NCBI GenBank assembly: GCA_035480235.1
Contig: DATIHX010000005.1
Span: forward strand, 551 to 64,550
Length of the DNA stretch: 64,000 bases
Source of the DNA: Candidatus Saccharimonadales bacterium
GTDB lineage: Bacteria > Patescibacteriota > UBA1384 > 2-12-FULL-50-11
Reading direction: 5' to 3'
A program made the position numbers and the translations under genes. Shown here in pieces: positions 54,008 to 59,395 of this stretch (the stretch's first letter is position 1; each line of letters opens with the position of its first letter). The notes beneath the pieces are model-generated. The model was not told the origin of the DNA, did not search any database, and saw only the letters and a list, made by a program, of their open reading frames with translations.

Positions 54008-54550
54008 ATGCACCTTTCAATTGCTATTGATCCTGGCACCGTGTTCCAAGGCGTAGCTTATCGTCGTAACAATGAGATGCGTGTCAACTACGGCTCAATC
54101 GTTCTGCCAAGCGCTCAATATGCCGATCTTGAGTTATTTAAGGAGCGGATCGATTCAGAGAAATTTGGCCGAGAGTTAATCTGGCAGCTGCCAGACTGTA
54201 CCAGCGTTACCGTTTTCATCGAAAGACCTGATCGTCGACTCGCCCTAAACGATAGGCGGACAGGTGGAAACCAACAAGACTATCGGGATCTGAAAAGCGT
54301 TATAAGTTGTTGGAAGCAGTTATTTCTGTCTTATCTGATGGAAGCTTCTGTGATTGAAGTTGATTCGCTGAAGTGGCAAAAACGGCTGCTTGGCAGAGAT
54401 TGGAGCGGCAAAGACAGCGCCAAGCGTTTGTCGCTGCATTACGCTCGTCAGCGGGTTCCAACACTGTCACCCAATTCCTCTGATCACATTACAGACGCCG
54501 TATGTTTGTTAATTTACGCTGAAGGAATCTGTCGCTCTAACTCGCCTTAA
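54008..54550 (+). CDS. RuvC-like (RNase H fold) nuclease, divergent
   Basis: ORF track 53966..54550; ATG 54008 after TAAGGAGGG; IAIDPGT (Asp), VFIERP (Glu), VIEVDSLKWQKRLLG and SSDHITDAVCLLIYA align by eye with the RuvC catalytic motifs. Confidence 0.6.
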   Translation: MHLSIAIDPGTVFQGVAYRRNNEMRVNYGSIVLPSAQYADLELFKERIDSEKFGRELIWQLPDCTSVTVFIERPDRRLALNDRRTGGNQQDYRDLKSVISCWKQLFLSYLMEASVIEVDSLKWQKRLLGRDWSGKDSAKRLSLHYARQRVPTLSPNSSDHITDAVCLLIYAEGICRSNSP

Positions 54551-54564
54551 CTGGCGAGTTTTTT
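54541..54564 (+). terminator. intrinsic terminator shared by convergent genes
   Basis: ctcgcc ttaact ggcgag + T6; both stop codons lie in the loop. Confidence 0.7.
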
Positions 54565-55683
54565 AATAATCGCCGAAGCGACGCGCTGAATATCCTGTTT
54601 CTTTGTTTGGCGACCAAATGAGACTCGGATCGTTGCGGAAATTTGTTCGTTGGTTAGGCCGATTGCTGTAAGTACATGGGAATCGCCAAGCGATTTGGAG
54701 CTGCAAGCGCTGCCGGCGGAAACGGCGATCCCCTGTTGGTCGAGCTCCTTGACTAAGTCACGGTTTTTGATGCCAGGTAACGTTACCGAAAGATGATTCG
54801 GCAGCCGGTTAGTTTTTTTGGCGTTAATAAGTACGCCGGGTAGTTTTTCCAGTTCCGCTTGCAGCCAATCACGCAATTGGCCGATTTTTTTGCTATCCAA
54901 ATCGCGGTTTTTTTCGATAATTTTGGCGGCCTCGGCCAGGCCGACGATACCCGGCACATTTTCGGTGCCGCTGCGTAAACTTTGTTCTTGACCGCCGCCG
55001 TACACCAATGGAAAAATCGAAACCCCTTGGCGAACGTACAATAAGGCCACACCGCGCGGACCGTACATTTTAGTACCATTGATCGTTAGTAGGTCCGCAC
55101 CCAATTCCTGTATATCAAGTTTGATATACGACGAAGCTTGGCAGGCATCGACGTGAATAAGAGTATTCGCGTTTTTGGCTTTAACGGCTTTGGCGATATC
55201 GGCAATATTTTGGACAACACCGATTTCCGAGTTAGCTAAGTGGGTGGTAACTAAAATAGTCTCTTTGGTGACGGCTTCGGCAATTGCTGTAGCCGCCACA
55301 ACACCATTTTTATCAGGCGAAACATATGATATTTGCCAACCATCTTTTTCCAGCGCCCGGCAAGCGTTAAGAATGCTCGGATGCTCGATTGTCGTTGTGA
55401 CGATATGTTTGCCGCGGCTTTTGTTGGCCTTAGCGACACCTAATATCGCCAAGTTATTACTTTCGGTGCCGGAAGATGTGAAATAAATTTCATCGGTTTT
55501 GGCGTTCAAAAATTTTGCCAGCTCCTCACGGGCGGCGTTCAGTTCAATCCAGGCGGCGTGGCCGAAGCCGTGAGCGCTGGACGGATTACCAATTAGGGCG
55601 TCAGAAATTGCCCGAACTCGGTCGGTTACTTTCGGGTCAATTGGAGTTGAGGCGGCGTAATCGGCGTAAATTTTGGGGGTCAT
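54547..55683 (-). CDS. cysteine desulfurase (NifS/IscS class V aminotransferase)
   Basis: ORF track 378 aa; PLP-lysine region INGTKMYGPRG and C-terminal SAGSACSS active-site Cys loop. Confidence 0.88.
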   Translation of the reverse strand: MTPKIYADYAASTPIDPKVTDRVRAISDALIGNPSSAHGFGHAAWIELNAAREELAKFLNAKTDEIYFTSSGTESNNLAILGVAKANKSRGKHIVTTTIEHPSILNACRALEKDGWQISYVSPDKNGVVAATAIAEAVTKETILVTTHLANSEIGVVQNIADIAKAVKAKNANTLIHVDACQASSYIKLDIQELGADLLTINGTKMYGPRGVALLYVRQGVSIFPLVYGGGQEQSLRSGTENVPGIVGLAEAAKIIEKNRDLDSKKIGQLRDWLQAELEKLPGVLINAKKTNRLPNHLSVTLPGIKNRDLVKELDQQGIAVSAGSACSSKSLGDSHVLTAIGLTNEQISATIRVSFGRQTKKQDIQRVASAIIKKLAS

Positions 55684-55827: not shown

Positions 55828-56631
55828 ATGTTTGAACTATTAGCTATCGGCAGCGTCGTAGTAATGGGACTGATCGCTACGACGATGAGTAAAATTGGCA
55901 GTCAAAAAAAGCGCATCAGTGCGCTGGAATCTGAGAAGCGAAGGCAAGAAGAACTAGCAGCTAGTCTCTACGGGATTACTGGAGGGGTTTGGATTCGTCG
56001 ACCGGATGGCAACGCCCACCCAATCCAGAACTTGCTTGAACAAGAGCTAAGTGCGAGAGGCATGGCTCTATTCAACCTCCGAAGAGAACCCGCCGAAAAT
56101 CTAATCAAAAATGGTGAATGGGATTCTATGATTGCTGTAAAGCATCTAGATGTCGCTATTTTGGGGAAACTTATCACTCACCAAATAACCACCGACCGGG
56201 TTCACTATATTTCGGTCCAACATGTTCACACTAAGACCGGCGTTCGATTTCATGAGCTGGGTAAGAATCATTCAGACTATAGAATGCCTAACAGCATTTG
56301 GCTGGATGACTATGAGGCGGCTTCGCTGGATCCAGACGACGAAGAAGAGAATCTCTACTATTTCGAGCACGACGAGCATTTTGCTCTCAGGAAAGAGAAA
56401 GAAAAGATTGTTGAACCGATCTCAACTGAACAATATACAGTTGATGTTAGGTTCTACGGTTCAGATGGTTCTGTTCGAGGCGGCTACATCGGCACAAAAA
56501 TCAAAGACATAGATAGCGAACCCACCCAAACCCTCACCGCGGAACTAGTCACAGCAGTGTCAAAAAGCGTCAAAAGATCGCTTTTAGCTCACGAAAATTC
56601 CACATCTCGCTTTGAGCTTGACGGAAAGTAA
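55828..56631 (+). CDS. hypothetical membrane-anchored protein (orphan)
   Basis: ORF track 267 aa; N-terminal TM LLAIGSVVVMGLIATTM then coiled-coil-like segment; terminator 56650-56674. Confidence 0.55.
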   Translation: MFELLAIGSVVVMGLIATTMSKIGSQKKRISALESEKRRQEELAASLYGITGGVWIRRPDGNAHPIQNLLEQELSARGMALFNLRREPAENLIKNGEWDSMIAVKHLDVAILGKLITHQITTDRVHYISVQHVHTKTGVRFHELGKNHSDYRMPNSIWLDDYEAASLDPDDEEENLYYFEHDEHFALRKEKEKIVEPISTEQYTVDVRFYGSDGSVRGGYIGTKIKDIDSEPTQTLTAELVTAVSKSVKRSLLAHENSTSRFELDGK

Positions 56632-56681: not shown

Positions 56682-57356
56682 TTATTCGGCGGTTAAAACA
56701 GTGACGGCAATCTTATCTTTCAGTAAATCGCGAAAACGGTGAGCGTCCATGACGCTGCCCAGGAGTTTGCCAAAATGCATCGGGATCGCAAGTTTCGGTT
56801 GAATTAATTCAGCGGCTTGAACCGCTTCTTCAACCGTCATCACGTAGGTGCCGGAGATCGGCAGAAGGGCGACGTCAATTTTCTTTAAGGTTTCCATTTC
56901 GGGCGTCACATCGGTGTCGCCAGCGTGATAAATGCGGGTCGAGCCAACCTCAACAATGAAACCAACACCACCGAGCTCTTTCGGGTGAAAAACTTCGGTT
57001 GGCGTGCGGAATTTATTGACGTTATACGCCGGAATCGCCCAATAAGTTATTTTTTCAAGTTTCACCTTGTCGGTGCCGTCGTAAAAAGCAACTTTATCGC
57101 CGAATTCGGCGAGTTCATTTTGGAAGGCGTTCGAAGCCACTATGACGGTTTTTTCGTGCGATAGTTTGCGAATGCTGTCGGGGTCGCAGTGGTCAAAATG
57201 GCCGTGCGAAACAAAAATATAATCGGCTTTTTTGTCGATGGGAGCGATTTGAAACGGGTCAAAAGCAAGTGTTAAATTCTCGTTTGGAAATTCAACCAAA
57301 AACCCATCATGGCCCAGGGCAGTGATAATTGCGCCTTCAAAAGTTGTTTGTTGCAT
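56682..57356 (-). CDS. metallo-beta-lactamase-fold hydrolase
   Basis: ORF track 224 aa; SHGHFDHCD metal-binding motif. Confidence 0.8.
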   Translation of the reverse strand: MQQTTFEGAIITALGHDGFLVEFPNENLTLAFDPFQIAPIDKKADYIFVSHGHFDHCDPDSIRKLSHEKTVIVASNAFQNELAEFGDKVAFYDGTDKVKLEKITYWAIPAYNVNKFRTPTEVFHPKELGGVGFIVEVGSTRIYHAGDTDVTPEMETLKKIDVALLPISGTYVMTVEEAVQAAELIQPKLAIPMHFGKLLGSVMDAHRFRDLLKDKIAVTVLTAE

Positions 57357-57429
57357 ACAGTCACTAAAACAAAATATTCATCACCCCACAACCGGCTAAT
57401 AATTCAGGGGCTTGAAATTTCTTAATTCC

Positions 57430-57451
57430 CGTATACGTTATAACGTATACG
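57430..57451. promoter_or_regulatory. 22-bp perfect palindrome CGTATACGTTATAACGTATACG abutting the HTH gene start
   Basis: Read directly; self-complementary; 20-bp core repeated at 57786-57805. Confidence 0.8.
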
Positions 57452-57772
57452 ATGCGTTTAGAACGTGAATATACTTACGAGGGCGGCCCAACGCTTTATA
57501 AAAAGCGTAAAAAGTTGAAGAGTATTCGTTGGGTTAAGGGCAACGAGCTTGATAAAATAACGATTTCAGAAAAATGGTACTTGGAGCTATGTCATGAGTT
57601 TCGTAACGCACGCTTGGCTAAGCGCTTAACACAAAAAGAGCTAGCCCACGATTTACTAACAACTCAGGCATGGATTTCAGATTTAGAAAACGGCAAGCAT
57701 AATCTAACTATCGGTTCGCTGTTGGGAGTTGCTTCACATTTAAGAATCAAACTAACAATCCTCGCAAAGTAG
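57452..57772 (+). CDS. XRE-family helix-turn-helix protein
   Basis: ORF track 106 aa; C-terminal LTQKELAHDLLTTQAWISDLENGKHNLTIGSLLGVA is a Cro/C1-type HTH; no SD; flanked by identical palindromes. Confidence 0.7.
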   Translation: MRLEREYTYEGGPTLYKKRKKLKSIRWVKGNELDKITISEKWYLELCHEFRNARLAKRLTQKELAHDLLTTQAWISDLENGKHNLTIGSLLGVASHLRIKLTILAK

Positions 57773-57781
57773 TGCAACTAA

Positions 57782-57809
57782 CACTGTATACGTTATAACG
57801 TATACAGTG
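57782..57809. promoter_or_regulatory. 28-bp perfect palindrome CACTGTATACGTTATAACGTATACAGTG just after the HTH gene stop
   Basis: Read directly; same 20-bp core GTATACGTTATAACGTATAC. Confidence 0.8.
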
Positions 57810-57853
57810 CACTAGGTTGATATTGACAATCACTTTCTATAAAGAAAGCGAGA

Positions 57854-58849
57854 TTAACGGCCGACGAGGAGCGCCAGTTCGACGAGGCGGCAAGAGTAGC
57901 CGTATTCGTTATCGTACCAAGCGACAACTTTGACGAGATCGCCGTCAACAACTTTGGTCAGTTTTAGATCAACAATCGCTGAGGCCGGATTGCCTTTGAA
58001 ATCCGAGGAAACAAGCTCTTCGTTGGTTACTTCCAAAATGCCTTTGTAGCGCGGGTTCTTGGCGGCTTCGGTCAGCACTTCGTTAACTTCCTCAACGGTC
58101 GTTTTTTTCTTAGTGACGAAAGTGAAATCGGAGAGTGAGACGACCGGCGTCGGAACACGAATGGATAAGCCGTCGAACAAACCTTTGAGCTCGGGGATGA
58201 CTTCGCCAGCCGAAATAGCTGCACCGGTGGTGGTAGGCACGATGTTTTCAGCGGCACCGCGAGCCCGGCGCAGATCTTTGTGCGGCCCGTCCTGGAGGTT
58301 TTGGTCAGCAGTATAGCTGTGAATCGTGGTCATCATCGCTTTTTGAACGCCGAAATGGGCAGTGATCACGGCGGCGACGGGCGTAATGCAGTTGGTGGTG
58401 CAGGAGGCGTTACTAATAACATCGCCCTCACCAATTTTATCTTCGTTGACGCTTAAAACGTGGGTCGGTACCTCGCCGCCTTTGGGCGGAGCGGAGATTA
58501 TTACATGTCGAGCACCGGCCGTAATATGGCCGCTAGCGCCGGCTTTATCGGTGAAGTGGCCGGTGCACTCCAGTACCACGTCCACGTTATGTTCGTGCCA
58601 CGGTAATTTGGTCGGGTCTTTTTCGGAGTAAACTTTAACCCTCTGGCCGGCAATTATTAAGTCGTCACCATCGGCCTTCACTTCCAGCCCGAACGTGCCG
58701 TAATTACTGTCGTGCTTTAATAAATGGGCCAGGGTTTTGACGTCAGTCAGGTCGTTAATCGCTACCAATTTAGCGTCTTTGTGGCGCTCAAAAATAATCC
58801 GGGCGCTGGTTCGGCCGATTCGGCCGAAGCCGTTAATTGCGATGTTCAT
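57854..58849 (-). CDS. gap: glyceraldehyde-3-phosphate dehydrogenase
   Basis: ORF track 57854..58945; conserved start MNIAINGFGRIGR at ATG 58847-58849; SNASCTTNC active site. Confidence 0.95.
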   Translation of the reverse strand: MNIAINGFGRIGRTSARIIFERHKDAKLVAINDLTDVKTLAHLLKHDSNYGTFGLEVKADGDDLIIAGQRVKVYSEKDPTKLPWHEHNVDVVLECTGHFTDKAGASGHITAGARHVIISAPPKGGEVPTHVLSVNEDKIGEGDVISNASCTTNCITPVAAVITAHFGVQKAMMTTIHSYTADQNLQDGPHKDLRRARGAAENIVPTTTGAAISAGEVIPELKGLFDGLSIRVPTPVVSLSDFTFVTKKKTTVEEVNEVLTEAAKNPRYKGILEVTNEELVSSDFKGNPASAIVDLKLTKVVDGDLVKVVAWYDNEYGYSCRLVELALLVGR

Positions 58850-58856
58850 TGTTACT

Positions 58857-58885
58857 AACATAACTTTTGTTATTATTTTGAGCAA
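58857..58885 (-). promoter_or_regulatory. promoter-like TTGCTC-17-TATGTT ending 7 nt before the gap ATG; leaderless candidate
   Basis: No SD before ATG 58847-58849. Confidence 0.5.
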
Positions 58886-58908
58886 GCGTCTAAATACCAA
58901 TATTCGCG

Positions 58909-58937
58909 TTGATTTAATCAAGAAAGCTGTGTATGAT
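58909..58937 (+). promoter_or_regulatory. promoter-like TTGATT-17-TATGAT
   Basis: Upstream of ORF 58979-59395. Confidence 0.6.
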
Positions 58938-58978
58938 TTGTGCATAACTTTGGGTAAGTACCCGAGTTCGGAGGCGGT

Positions 58979-59395
58979 ATGAAGTTTAGGAATTTAACAC
59001 TGGGGAACTACCAGGTGCATTTCGCACCGGGGGCCTACAAAGATAACGACTTTGACATTGTGAAGTCTGACGACCGTGACCCTGAAAAGGCTGTCCCTGT
59101 TGGTCGAGACAACTGCATGTTTCGATACTATAATGTCGTCGAAGGAGAAGTGGAGATCGAAGGGAAGTATGTTCCTTTCCGATCAGAACCGATGAATTAT
59201 TCGGCCTACTACTTCTTCGGCGGCGATGTGATTACTCCAGGAAACCCATATTGGGAAGCAGCTAAAGCCGACAATCGAAGGCTAAGCCTCAAAGAAGGCA
59301 TTCCCCAAAGGATCTGGAAGAGCCCACTCGGGACATATTGGGCGCTTGCGCCTGATGATGTCCTTATGCCGGCCCGCGAAACATTGGCAACATGA
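58979..59395 (+). CDS. hypothetical protein (orphan cassette)
   Basis: ORF track 138 aa; promoter TTGATT-17-TATGAT 58909-58937, GGAGG SD, terminator 59405-59433. Confidence 0.55.
   Translation: MKFRNLTLGNYQVHFAPGAYKDNDFDIVKSDDRDPEKAVPVGRDNCMFRYYNVVEGEVEIEGKYVPFRSEPMNYSAYYFFGGDVITPGNPYWEAAKADNRRLSLKEGIPQRIWKSPLGTYWALAPDDVLMPARETLAT

Follow-up and report, generated by a model that had tools for sequence, protein, structure and literature searches.

Introduction

XRE/HipB-like autorepressors acting on palindromic operators are a well-known kind of regulatory system. Here we describe a putative member from Candidatus Saccharimonadales, found in a stretch of 64,000 nucleotides (below, the window) of contig DATIHX010000005.1, in which a gene for a 106-amino-acid protein with an XRE-type helix-turn-helix (HTH) domain is bracketed by two copies of one palindrome. 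The same layout, with a palindrome of its own at each locus, recurs in every relative whose flanks are assembled, and both copies are predicted to be operators of the protein encoded between them.

Among proteins of solved structure, HipB, the antitoxin and autorepressor of the E. coli hipBA operon, is the nearest homologue of the HTH domain. The HipB dimer (four helices and one strand) bends its operator, TATCC-N8-GGATA, which can equally be written TATCCN-N6-NGGATA; one example, ACTATCCCCTTAAGGGGATAG, reads TATCCC-cttaag-GGGATA (PMC3376134, PMC3920265). The sites described here (TATRNN-N6-NNYATA) have the same 18-bp TAT...ATA frame of 6-6-6 geometry, and in both cases several operators are used in autorepression, here by prediction. 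The differences lie in the arrangement and the partners: the four operators of HipB cluster upstream of its operon and HipB has the HipA kinase as its partner, whereas here there is no toxin, the protein has an extra N-terminal beta-hairpin domain and one of the sites lies past the stop codon.

The controller (C) proteins of restriction-modification (R-M) systems, such as C.Esp1396I and C.AhdI, are likewise small XRE HTH dimers and structural neighbours of the 106-amino-acid protein, and their palindromic C-boxes diversify rapidly and overlap the protein's own, often leaderless, promoter. C-boxes are, however, adjacent, confined to the upstream side and located in R-M operons, whereas the present gene has a single upstream site and a second one downstream, with no R-M genes in the vicinity.

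A repressor gene flanked on both sides by its cognate operators is found in the OL-cI-OR region of lambdoid phages, where operator and repressor together make up a specificity module that can be exchanged and varies among close relatives (imm434, imm21). Auxiliary operators strengthen repression by looping in lambda, in lac (O1/O2/O3) and in gal (OE/OI). Unlike a lambdoid immunity region, the present locus lacks phage genes, a cro-like partner and outward lytic promoters, and it has a single operator per side, compared with the triplet of lambda; a loop would span ~355 bp as against 2.4 kb in lambda. Its flanks are housekeeping genes in conserved synteny, and the protein has generic HTH matches only among PHROG families; a family search of viral contigs found no relatives, and a scan of viral contigs for the 20-bp palindrome found no match.

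The pdif/Xer modules of Acinetobacter plasmids and the integrative mobile elements exploiting Xer (IMEX) consist of a small gene unit between two 28-bp sites of 11-6-11 layout; the arms of pdif sites are conserved XerC/XerD-binding sequences common to all modules. The 28-bp 11-6-11 layout is present here too, but the inner arms differ between modules (TATACG, TATATC, TATGTC, TATGGG and others), being module-specific and co-varying with the enclosed HTH protein. A precedent for a roadblock operator just past a stop codon comes from the gp71-type "stoperators" of mycobacteriophage L5, which are repressor sites in short gaps at gene ends that halt elongating RNA polymerase (PMC9283540). Stoperators are asymmetric, orientation-dependent, monomer-bound sites, numerous across a phage genome, whereas the sites described here are symmetric, two per module and chromosomal.

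A matching palindrome pair brackets the regulator gene

The module consists of three features:

57452-57772, + strand: regulator gene, 106 amino acids; beta-hairpin domain at the N-terminus, HipB-like XRE HTH at the C-terminus
57430-57451, no strand: predicted upstream operator, a 22-bp perfect palindrome, CGTATACGTTATAACGTATACG
57782-57809, no strand: predicted downstream auxiliary operator, a 28-bp perfect palindrome, CACTGTATACGTTATAACGTATACAGTG

Both palindromes contain the 20-mer GTATACGTTATAACGTATAC (57431-57450 and 57786-57805), and these are its sole two matches in the 64 kb with up to three mismatches allowed; the number expected from shuffled sequence is 0.00. The last base of the upstream palindrome is the base before the ATG at 57452, and its 18-bp core, TATACG-TTATAA-CGTATA, occupies 57432-57449. 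The downstream palindrome starts 9 nt past the TAG stop codon (57770-57772), is separated by 44 nt from the stop codon of the next gene, gap, and has the complete 5-6-6-6-5 form, CACTG-TATACG-TTATAA-CGTATA-CAGTG, relative to which the upstream site is shortened by the start codon. The positions, the 22-bp and 28-bp extents and the 9-nt offset reported earlier by a model from the letters alone (below, the sequence-only reading) all agree with the sequence, and the further copies of the 20-mer for which that reading had proposed a search do not occur in the window, nor do any other TATACG-type sites that would make up a regulon.

A chance repeat was ruled out by the 0.00 expected matches and by a control in which a 321-bp pseudo-gene was slid across the window (1272 positions) and had flanks sharing at least 13 nt only at the real gene. 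An assembly artefact was ruled out as well, both sites being present, 355 bp apart, on an independent Logan assembly contig (L002).

One perfect 6-6-6 site of the family type but of another class, tcctg-TATATC-aagttt-GATATA-cgacg, lies at 55111-55128, inside the Aminotran_5 gene (54547-55683, - strand). Its TATATC class is that of paralogue modules in other genomes (L012, L015), and it could be the target of an unseen paralogue; it may also be due to chance, with ~0.3 TAT-type sites expected per window.

The bracket is conserved across the family and its sequence is locus-specific

The comparison set comprised 14 further distinct loci of the protein family in at least eight genomic contexts, thus 15 loci with the window. 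Both flanks are assembled at 13 of the 14 (L003, L005, L007, L009, L010, L012, L015, L016, L018, L019, L020, L021 and L022), and at every one of the 13 a palindrome sits close ahead of the ATG, with its match shortly past the stop codon. The palindrome differs from locus to locus while its two copies match within each locus, as in these examples:

L003, both copies: GATATA-ttataa-TATATA
L005: TCTTATATATTA(T/A)AATATATAAGA
L007, both copies, within 36- and 30-bp perfect palindromes: TCTAATGTGGTATACCACATTAGA
L010, both copies: GTATATAGTATACTGTATAC
L015, both copies: TTATATCTTTAAAGATATAA
L020, both copies: ACCGTATGTCATATATGACATACGGTG

The remaining locus, L006, has the upstream copy, and its contig stops within the opening bases of where the downstream copy is expected. 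A locus-specific palindrome 0-40 nt before the ATG, where the binding site of an XRE autorepressor would be expected, is therefore found in 15/15 loci. Around XRE genes outside the family the bracket was absent in the two cases inspected, L011 and the antitoxin gene of L001 (see below). The sequence-only reading had suggested checking whether relatives carry the gene-plus-palindromes unit elsewhere or lack it here; they carry it in at least eight contexts, and the slot is occupied at this position. Because every relative with assembled flanks has the same layout with a palindrome of its own, we regard the unit as a conserved, fast-diversifying regulatory module and reject coincidence or a transposon scar.

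The contigs of L005 (end 1264), L006 (end 540), L015 (end 2895) and L018 (end 2886) all stop within the downstream palindrome or just as it begins. The palindromes thus seem to break assemblies, and with four independent metagenome contigs ending at this point the family is probably under-sampled.

Half-sites are kept within loci and follow the recognition helix

Aligned on their centres, all sites fit one 28-bp form, [CACYG]-TATRNN-N6-NNYATA-[CRGTG] (5-6-6-6-5), with an AT-rich spacer. At loci whose two copies are no longer the same, the half-sites have remained identical and the spacer has changed: the copies of L012 read TATATC-cgatcg-GATATA and TATATC-ttatag-GATATA, those of L019 have the spacers atataa and ttatat between identical half-sites, and those of L016 carry TATGGG half-sites around a 6-bp spacer in one copy and a 5-bp spacer in the other. 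Because half-sites are kept while spacers diverge, purifying selection has apparently acted, at both copies, on the positions that an HTH dimer would contact.

Half-site positions 4-6 also follow the recognition helix of the enclosed protein. Proteins with the residues S-N-Q have ..TGT. half-sites (3/3), and proteins with Q-x-V-I-S-[RK]-F-E have C at half-site position 6 (3/3, including two distant paralogues that share TATATC). In Mantel tests, operator distance correlated with the distance between recognition regions at r = 0.21 (p ~0.05), the corresponding value for the N-terminal part of the protein being r = 0.13 (p = 0.13).

From the locus-specific pairs, the retained half-sites and the co-variation with the protein, we put the probability that both palindromes are cognate operators of the enclosed HTH protein at roughly 0.8.

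At L016 a third copy of the operator, AATATGGGTTTGAATCCATATT (L016:250-271, 19/22 identical), lies in the intergenic region between grpE and comEC. It heads the comEC operon, which ends with the HTH gene, and this suggests that the L016 paralogue may control the operon of the competence channel ComEC, as would fit a local transcription factor.

The regulator belongs to an undescribed family

The 106-amino-acid protein matches Pfam HTH_3 over residues 51-103 with 33.1 bits (cut-off 23) and is thus of the XRE/Cro-CI type. No in-frame ATG, GTG or TTG precedes the start codon at 57452, a TGA stop lying at 57413-57415, and the N-terminus of the protein aligns with those of its homologues. The G+C content of the gene is 0.38-0.40 versus 0.47-0.58 in its neighbours. 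The AlphaFold model (predicted local distance difference test, pLDDT, 87.8) has a beta-hairpin with strands at residues 2-10 and 19-28, followed by four helices. HipB ranks first both by Foldseek and by a profile search of Protein Data Bank (PDB) sequences (E 8.5e-13), followed by C proteins, the 434 repressor, SinR and HigA, with weak matches to MBF1/EDF1. None of the curated NCBIfam models reaches its cut-off on this protein, including those for HipB and Y4mF (TIGR03070, 43.3 vs 71.65; PRK09726, 20 vs 79).

A word-indexed search returned only the protein itself, annotated in a Candidatus Saccharimonadales metagenome-assembled genome (MAG), and an exhaustive HMMER search gave 114 matches, including full-length relatives of 105-125 amino acids with 30-45% identity. 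In their alignment the N-terminal part is conserved as EY.Y..GGPKKYYKKR (in its shorter form EY.Y..GGP..Y.KR) and the C-terminal HTH as R.AR....LTQ..LA..LG[ST].Q..IS.FE.G..NPT..FL. Literature searches on HTH regulators, palindromes and leaderless promoters in Saccharibacteria and the Candidate Phyla Radiation (CPR) gave nothing relevant to such a family, and we regard it as a CPR family not described before, marked by a hairpin domain at the N-terminus.

The matches to MBF1/EDF1, which are ribosome-binding HTH proteins of eukaryotes and archaea, are weak but extended, covering profile positions 24-103 (PDB E ~6e-7). They extend past the HTH into the linker; with the NCBIfam aMBF1 model the score is 17-38 bits, the cut-off being 110.

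The upstream palindrome coincides with a putative leaderless promoter

One further feature was read from the sequence within the upstream site:

57439-57444, + strand: -10-like hexamer TATAAC at the palindrome centre, 7 nt before the ATG

At the syntenic-type loci L003, L005, L006, L007, L009 and L010 a locus-specific palindrome is centred 9-14 nt before the ATG, as in the window. In this syntenic group the -10-like hexamer is made up of the central spacer and the first bases of the right half-site; it reads TATAAC in the window, TATAAT in L003 and TATACT in L009 and L010, and its distance to the ATG is 7 nt in both the window and L003. At L016 the arrangement TATAAT-N6-ATG lies downstream of the operator. 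Because the -10-like hexamer stands only 7 nt before the ATG, the mRNA of the HTH gene is probably leaderless or near-leaderless, with the hexamer as its predicted promoter element.

The sequence-only reading had remarked that the gene has no Shine-Dalgarno (SD) sequence. This is true, an SD being impossible where the 7 nt before the ATG belong to the palindrome, but it is hardly a distinctive feature, since about half of the genes in the window lack one by a lax criterion. Several genes of the window lack an SD and carry, 6-9 nt ahead of the ATG, a hexamer resembling TATAAT, among them one with TATAAT-N7-ATG at its start (27949, - strand), which suggests that leaderless mRNAs are common in this genome. 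Leaderless expression is plausible in this genome because of that TATAAT-N7-ATG and the roughly half of genes without an SD.

The same reading had interpreted the upstream palindrome as an autoregulatory operator overlapping the promoter or the 5' end of a leaderless mRNA. This prediction gains strong comparative support from the locus-specific pairs, the conserved half-sites and the HipB-like geometry.

The downstream palindrome is best explained as a second operator

In 13/13 other loci with an assembled 3' flank, the centre of the downstream copy lies 7-33 nt from the stop codon. The next gene, where the contig reaches it, is convergent in five contexts and co-directional in at least two (L012, L022); because the position near the stop codon holds whatever the orientation of the next gene, the role of the downstream copy is tied to the HTH gene itself. 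The more perfect palindrome is the downstream one in 7 loci and the upstream one in 2, with no difference elsewhere; this is a trend only, in the direction expected if a strong auxiliary operator aids a primary operator constrained by the promoter. The spacing between the operators, 354-423 bp across loci, speaks at this length neither for nor against looping.

For the downstream copy the sequence-only reading had left three options, a second operator, a bidirectional hairpin terminator lacking a T tract and the boundary of a small mobile cassette, of which the first has the best support. The second belongs to a wider alternative, according to which both palindromes are RNA or DNA hairpins, the downstream one serving as a bidirectional terminator or as a stabiliser of the mRNA 3' end, the upstream one as an insulating terminator or a hairpin that occludes translation, and protein binding is irrelevant. 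Both hairpins do fold. The downstream RNA hairpin, which has an AT-rich stem, reaches -15 to -22 kcal/mol, and its stability holds for either strand (-20 to -22 kcal/mol, z -3.6 to -4.3); for the upstream hairpin the value is -13.6 kcal/mol. The most variable bases are the central ones, which would form the loop, and in most contexts the downstream site lies between convergent 3' ends. Yet a terminator need not equal the site at the 5' end of the gene, and the copies match at each locus while differing between loci. Nor does the downstream site look like an intrinsic terminator, as the scan called none at 57782-57809, the stem is AT-rich and neither strand has a T run; Rfam gave no match at E <= 1 in 57000-58200. 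The TAT...ATA frame of 6-6-6, in turn, fits an operator of the HipB type, and the half-sites of L016 have been retained although the spacer is 5 bp long in one copy and 6 bp in the other. Hairpins as the sole explanation are thus unlikely. The hairpin is stable enough for termination to be a possible added role, but termination does not explain the identity with the upstream site; the site could be an operator and still serve as a roadblock or in hairpin termination.

Neighbouring genes and variability of the module

The module lies between two genes:

56682-57356, - strand: MBL-fold (metallo-beta-lactamase) hydrolase, Lactamase_B_3, divergent; the 95-bp intergenic region holds the upstream palindrome
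57854-58945, - strand: gap (GAPDH), convergent, closing the tkt-fba-gap cluster, with its 3' end towards the downstream palindrome

The MBL gene starts at 57356, 73 bp from the upstream palindrome (the sequence-only reading had estimated about 75 bp), and it is possibly co-regulated through the predicted upstream operator. A general link of the family with MBL-fold neighbours, present in three of the four contexts sampled first, was lost after four more contexts and dropped.

The gene order Aminotran_5...MBL(-)/HTH(+)/gap(-)-fba-tkt is fully common to the window, L003, L007, L009 and L010, its MBL/HTH part is also found in L005, and the MBL/HTH/gap arrangement was counted in six distinct loci. 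In each of the six syntenic relatives that have data at this position, the slot between MBL and gap is filled. Two open reading frames without Pfam matches in the window (55828-56631, + strand, 267 amino acids; 58979-59395, + strand, 138 amino acids) split the Aminotran_5-MBL and gap-fba junctions, which are contiguous in the syntenic L003. At L020, in an RmuC context, a convergent reverse-transcriptase gene (RVT_1; L020:2931-3938, - strand) lies immediately downstream of the HTH module.

Between close relatives the module is far more variable than its flanks. L007 and L009, from the same groundwater sample, are 93% identical in GAPDH and 82% in the MBL protein but 39% in the HTH protein, and their operators differ (AATGTG vs TATAYA); the window and L005, from the same sequencing run, are 84% identical in the MBL protein and 45% in the HTH protein, with TATACG vs TATATA. 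At the nucleotide level, identity drops sharply at the MBL start and returns at the gap stop, so that a hypervariable island can be delimited at about 2919-3415 in L007 (compared with L009/L010) and at 57357-57853 in the window (compared with L005). The variability reflects either allele swapping by recombination in the conserved flanks or very fast diversification of the module.

At L019 a 35-bp direct repeat of the pgk 3' end (L019:2093-2127 and 2678-2712) surrounds the whole module. About 15 further bases are weakly similar, the junctions lie ~60 bp outside the palindromes, and the repeat is unique among the 10 loci checked. It looks like an insertion signature, left by an integration that duplicated or restored the end of pgk.

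These observations bear on the third option, in which palindrome, gene and palindrome form a small mobile or exchangeable cassette, the palindromes being 11-6-11 recombination sites or terminal inverted repeats served by a recombinase in trans. In favour of this, dif-like sites have an 11-6-11 layout with which the 5-6-6-6-5 form agrees, at least eight gene contexts contain the module, at L019 it sits within the duplicated pgk end, and it is replaced or hyper-diverged between close relatives, as the GAPDH and HTH identities of L007 and L009 illustrate. Against this, the MBL/HTH/gap synteny is old, and its presence in six distinct loci rules out a recent mobile cassette at this locus and leaves the idea of a cassette boundary unsupported here. 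No recombinase gene adjoins the module at any locus, and the arms vary between modules and track the HTH protein, whereas a host recombinase would require constant ones. At L019 itself the position of the junctions means that the palindromes were not the crossover points. Nor does the unit resemble a transposable element or a miniature inverted-repeat transposable element (MITE), with only two repeat copies in 64 kb, a slot that is always occupied and no direct repeats flanking the module in the window, nor in any of the 9 loci checked apart from L019. We consider palindromes acting as mobility sites distinctly unlikely.

The same 20-mer in an unrelated toxin-antitoxin context

Among 185,579 species genomes, the 20-mer has just one other exact copy, in a Gemmatimonadaceae MAG (JANOKE010000700.1; L001:24-43), thus in an unrelated phylum. 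Its 3' end lies 63 nt upstream of an operon of a Gp49-like toxin and an XRE antitoxin (107-517 and 483-854), and a third half-site, TAACGTATA (L001:98-106), abuts the ATG of the toxin gene. This context shows that the 20-mer sequence can serve as an XRE operator. The antitoxin is at least as close to other members of the family as to the window protein, and since a palindromic 20-mer carries only ~20 bits, such a match is unsurprising among very many operators; homology of this operon to the window module was rejected in favour of convergence.

That the protein is an orphan or trans-acting antitoxin of the HipB/HigA type, its palindromes being toxin-antitoxin (TA) operators kept after loss or relocation of the toxin, is very improbable, for although HipB antitoxins are its best relatives in sequence and structure, the identical 20-mer and the third half-site precede a TA operon in the Gemmatimonadaceae MAG and rapid diversification of specificity is typical of TA modules, there is no HipA-type toxin gene next to it in the window and no toxin gene adjoining in any of the 15 loci, where housekeeping genes are the neighbours, its scores fall short of what NCBIfam requires for HipB and Y4mF, TA operators are confined to the upstream side while here a copy always follows the stop codon, and the shared 20-mer looks convergent in view of an antitoxin that is not specially close.

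Discussion

In the mechanism that we propose, a HipB-like XRE dimer would read the half-sites TATACG/CGTATA across the 6-bp AT-rich spacer, and the basic N-terminal hairpin would possibly touch the outer CACTG/CAGTG flanks. Occupancy of the upstream site would cover TATAAC and the probably leaderless start and so shut the gene off by negative autoregulation, with a possible effect on the divergent MBL gene as well. At the downstream auxiliary site repressor may be caught and, by looping of the ~355-bp gene, passed to the promoter site, or this site may act as a roadblock of protein or hairpin that isolates the HTH gene from transcription of the convergent gap operon. This full operator-based model, including the auxiliary role in looping or as a roadblock, we hold to be likely on the comparative evidence; our confidence in looping specifically is well below that.

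Four observations weigh against the operator model or parts of it. With only its own two sites in the window, the regulator has no obvious physiological output. The sigma-70 consensus scan calls no -35/-10 pair at the upstream site, the nearest -35-like element, TTGAAA (57412-57417), lying 21 nt from the hexamer, which is too far. The spacing of the operators shows no conserved helical phase, which leaves looping without positive support. Finally, at L009 and L010 both copies share the same asymmetry in direct orientation, which a symmetric dimer does not require and which hints at duplication or gene conversion. Because this asymmetry is direct and not inverted, it also disfavours an RNA panhandle between the 5' and 3' copies.

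What is new here, relative to known XRE autorepressors, is the CPR family with its N-terminal hairpin domain and the invariant second site, predicted to be cognate, just past the stop codon. New as well are the common 28-bp site grammar filled with locus-specific half-sites and the hypervariability of the whole module between close relatives.

A more far-reaching interpretation, which draws on the analogy with phage immunity and which we find doubtful, is that the module would be a self-contained, horizontally exchangeable specificity cassette of Saccharibacteria, like an orphan phage immunity region, that stays at fixed chromosomal slots (MBL/gap, RmuC, ComEC, pgk, RNase J), is swapped or diversified under diversifying selection among sister strains that occur together, and has bracketing sites through which the protein could seal its own gene within an insulated loop. 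If true, it would provide a natural set of orthogonal repressor/operator pairs and would imply a function in strain identity or against invaders and not ordinary metabolic regulation.

For the operator model itself, the consequences are more immediate. A second operator past the stop codon would be non-standard for XRE autorepressors and could serve as a model for looping or roadblock insulation in compact genomes. The correspondence between half-site positions 4-6 and the residues of the recognition helix may amount to a small recognition code of HipB-like HTH domains from which orthogonal parts could be drawn, and the hypervariability between co-occurring close relatives points to selection at the strain level. 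Transcription control in Saccharibacteria and other CPR bacteria is essentially uncharted, and the module described here offers a testable, predicted regulator-operator system in 15 natural variants.

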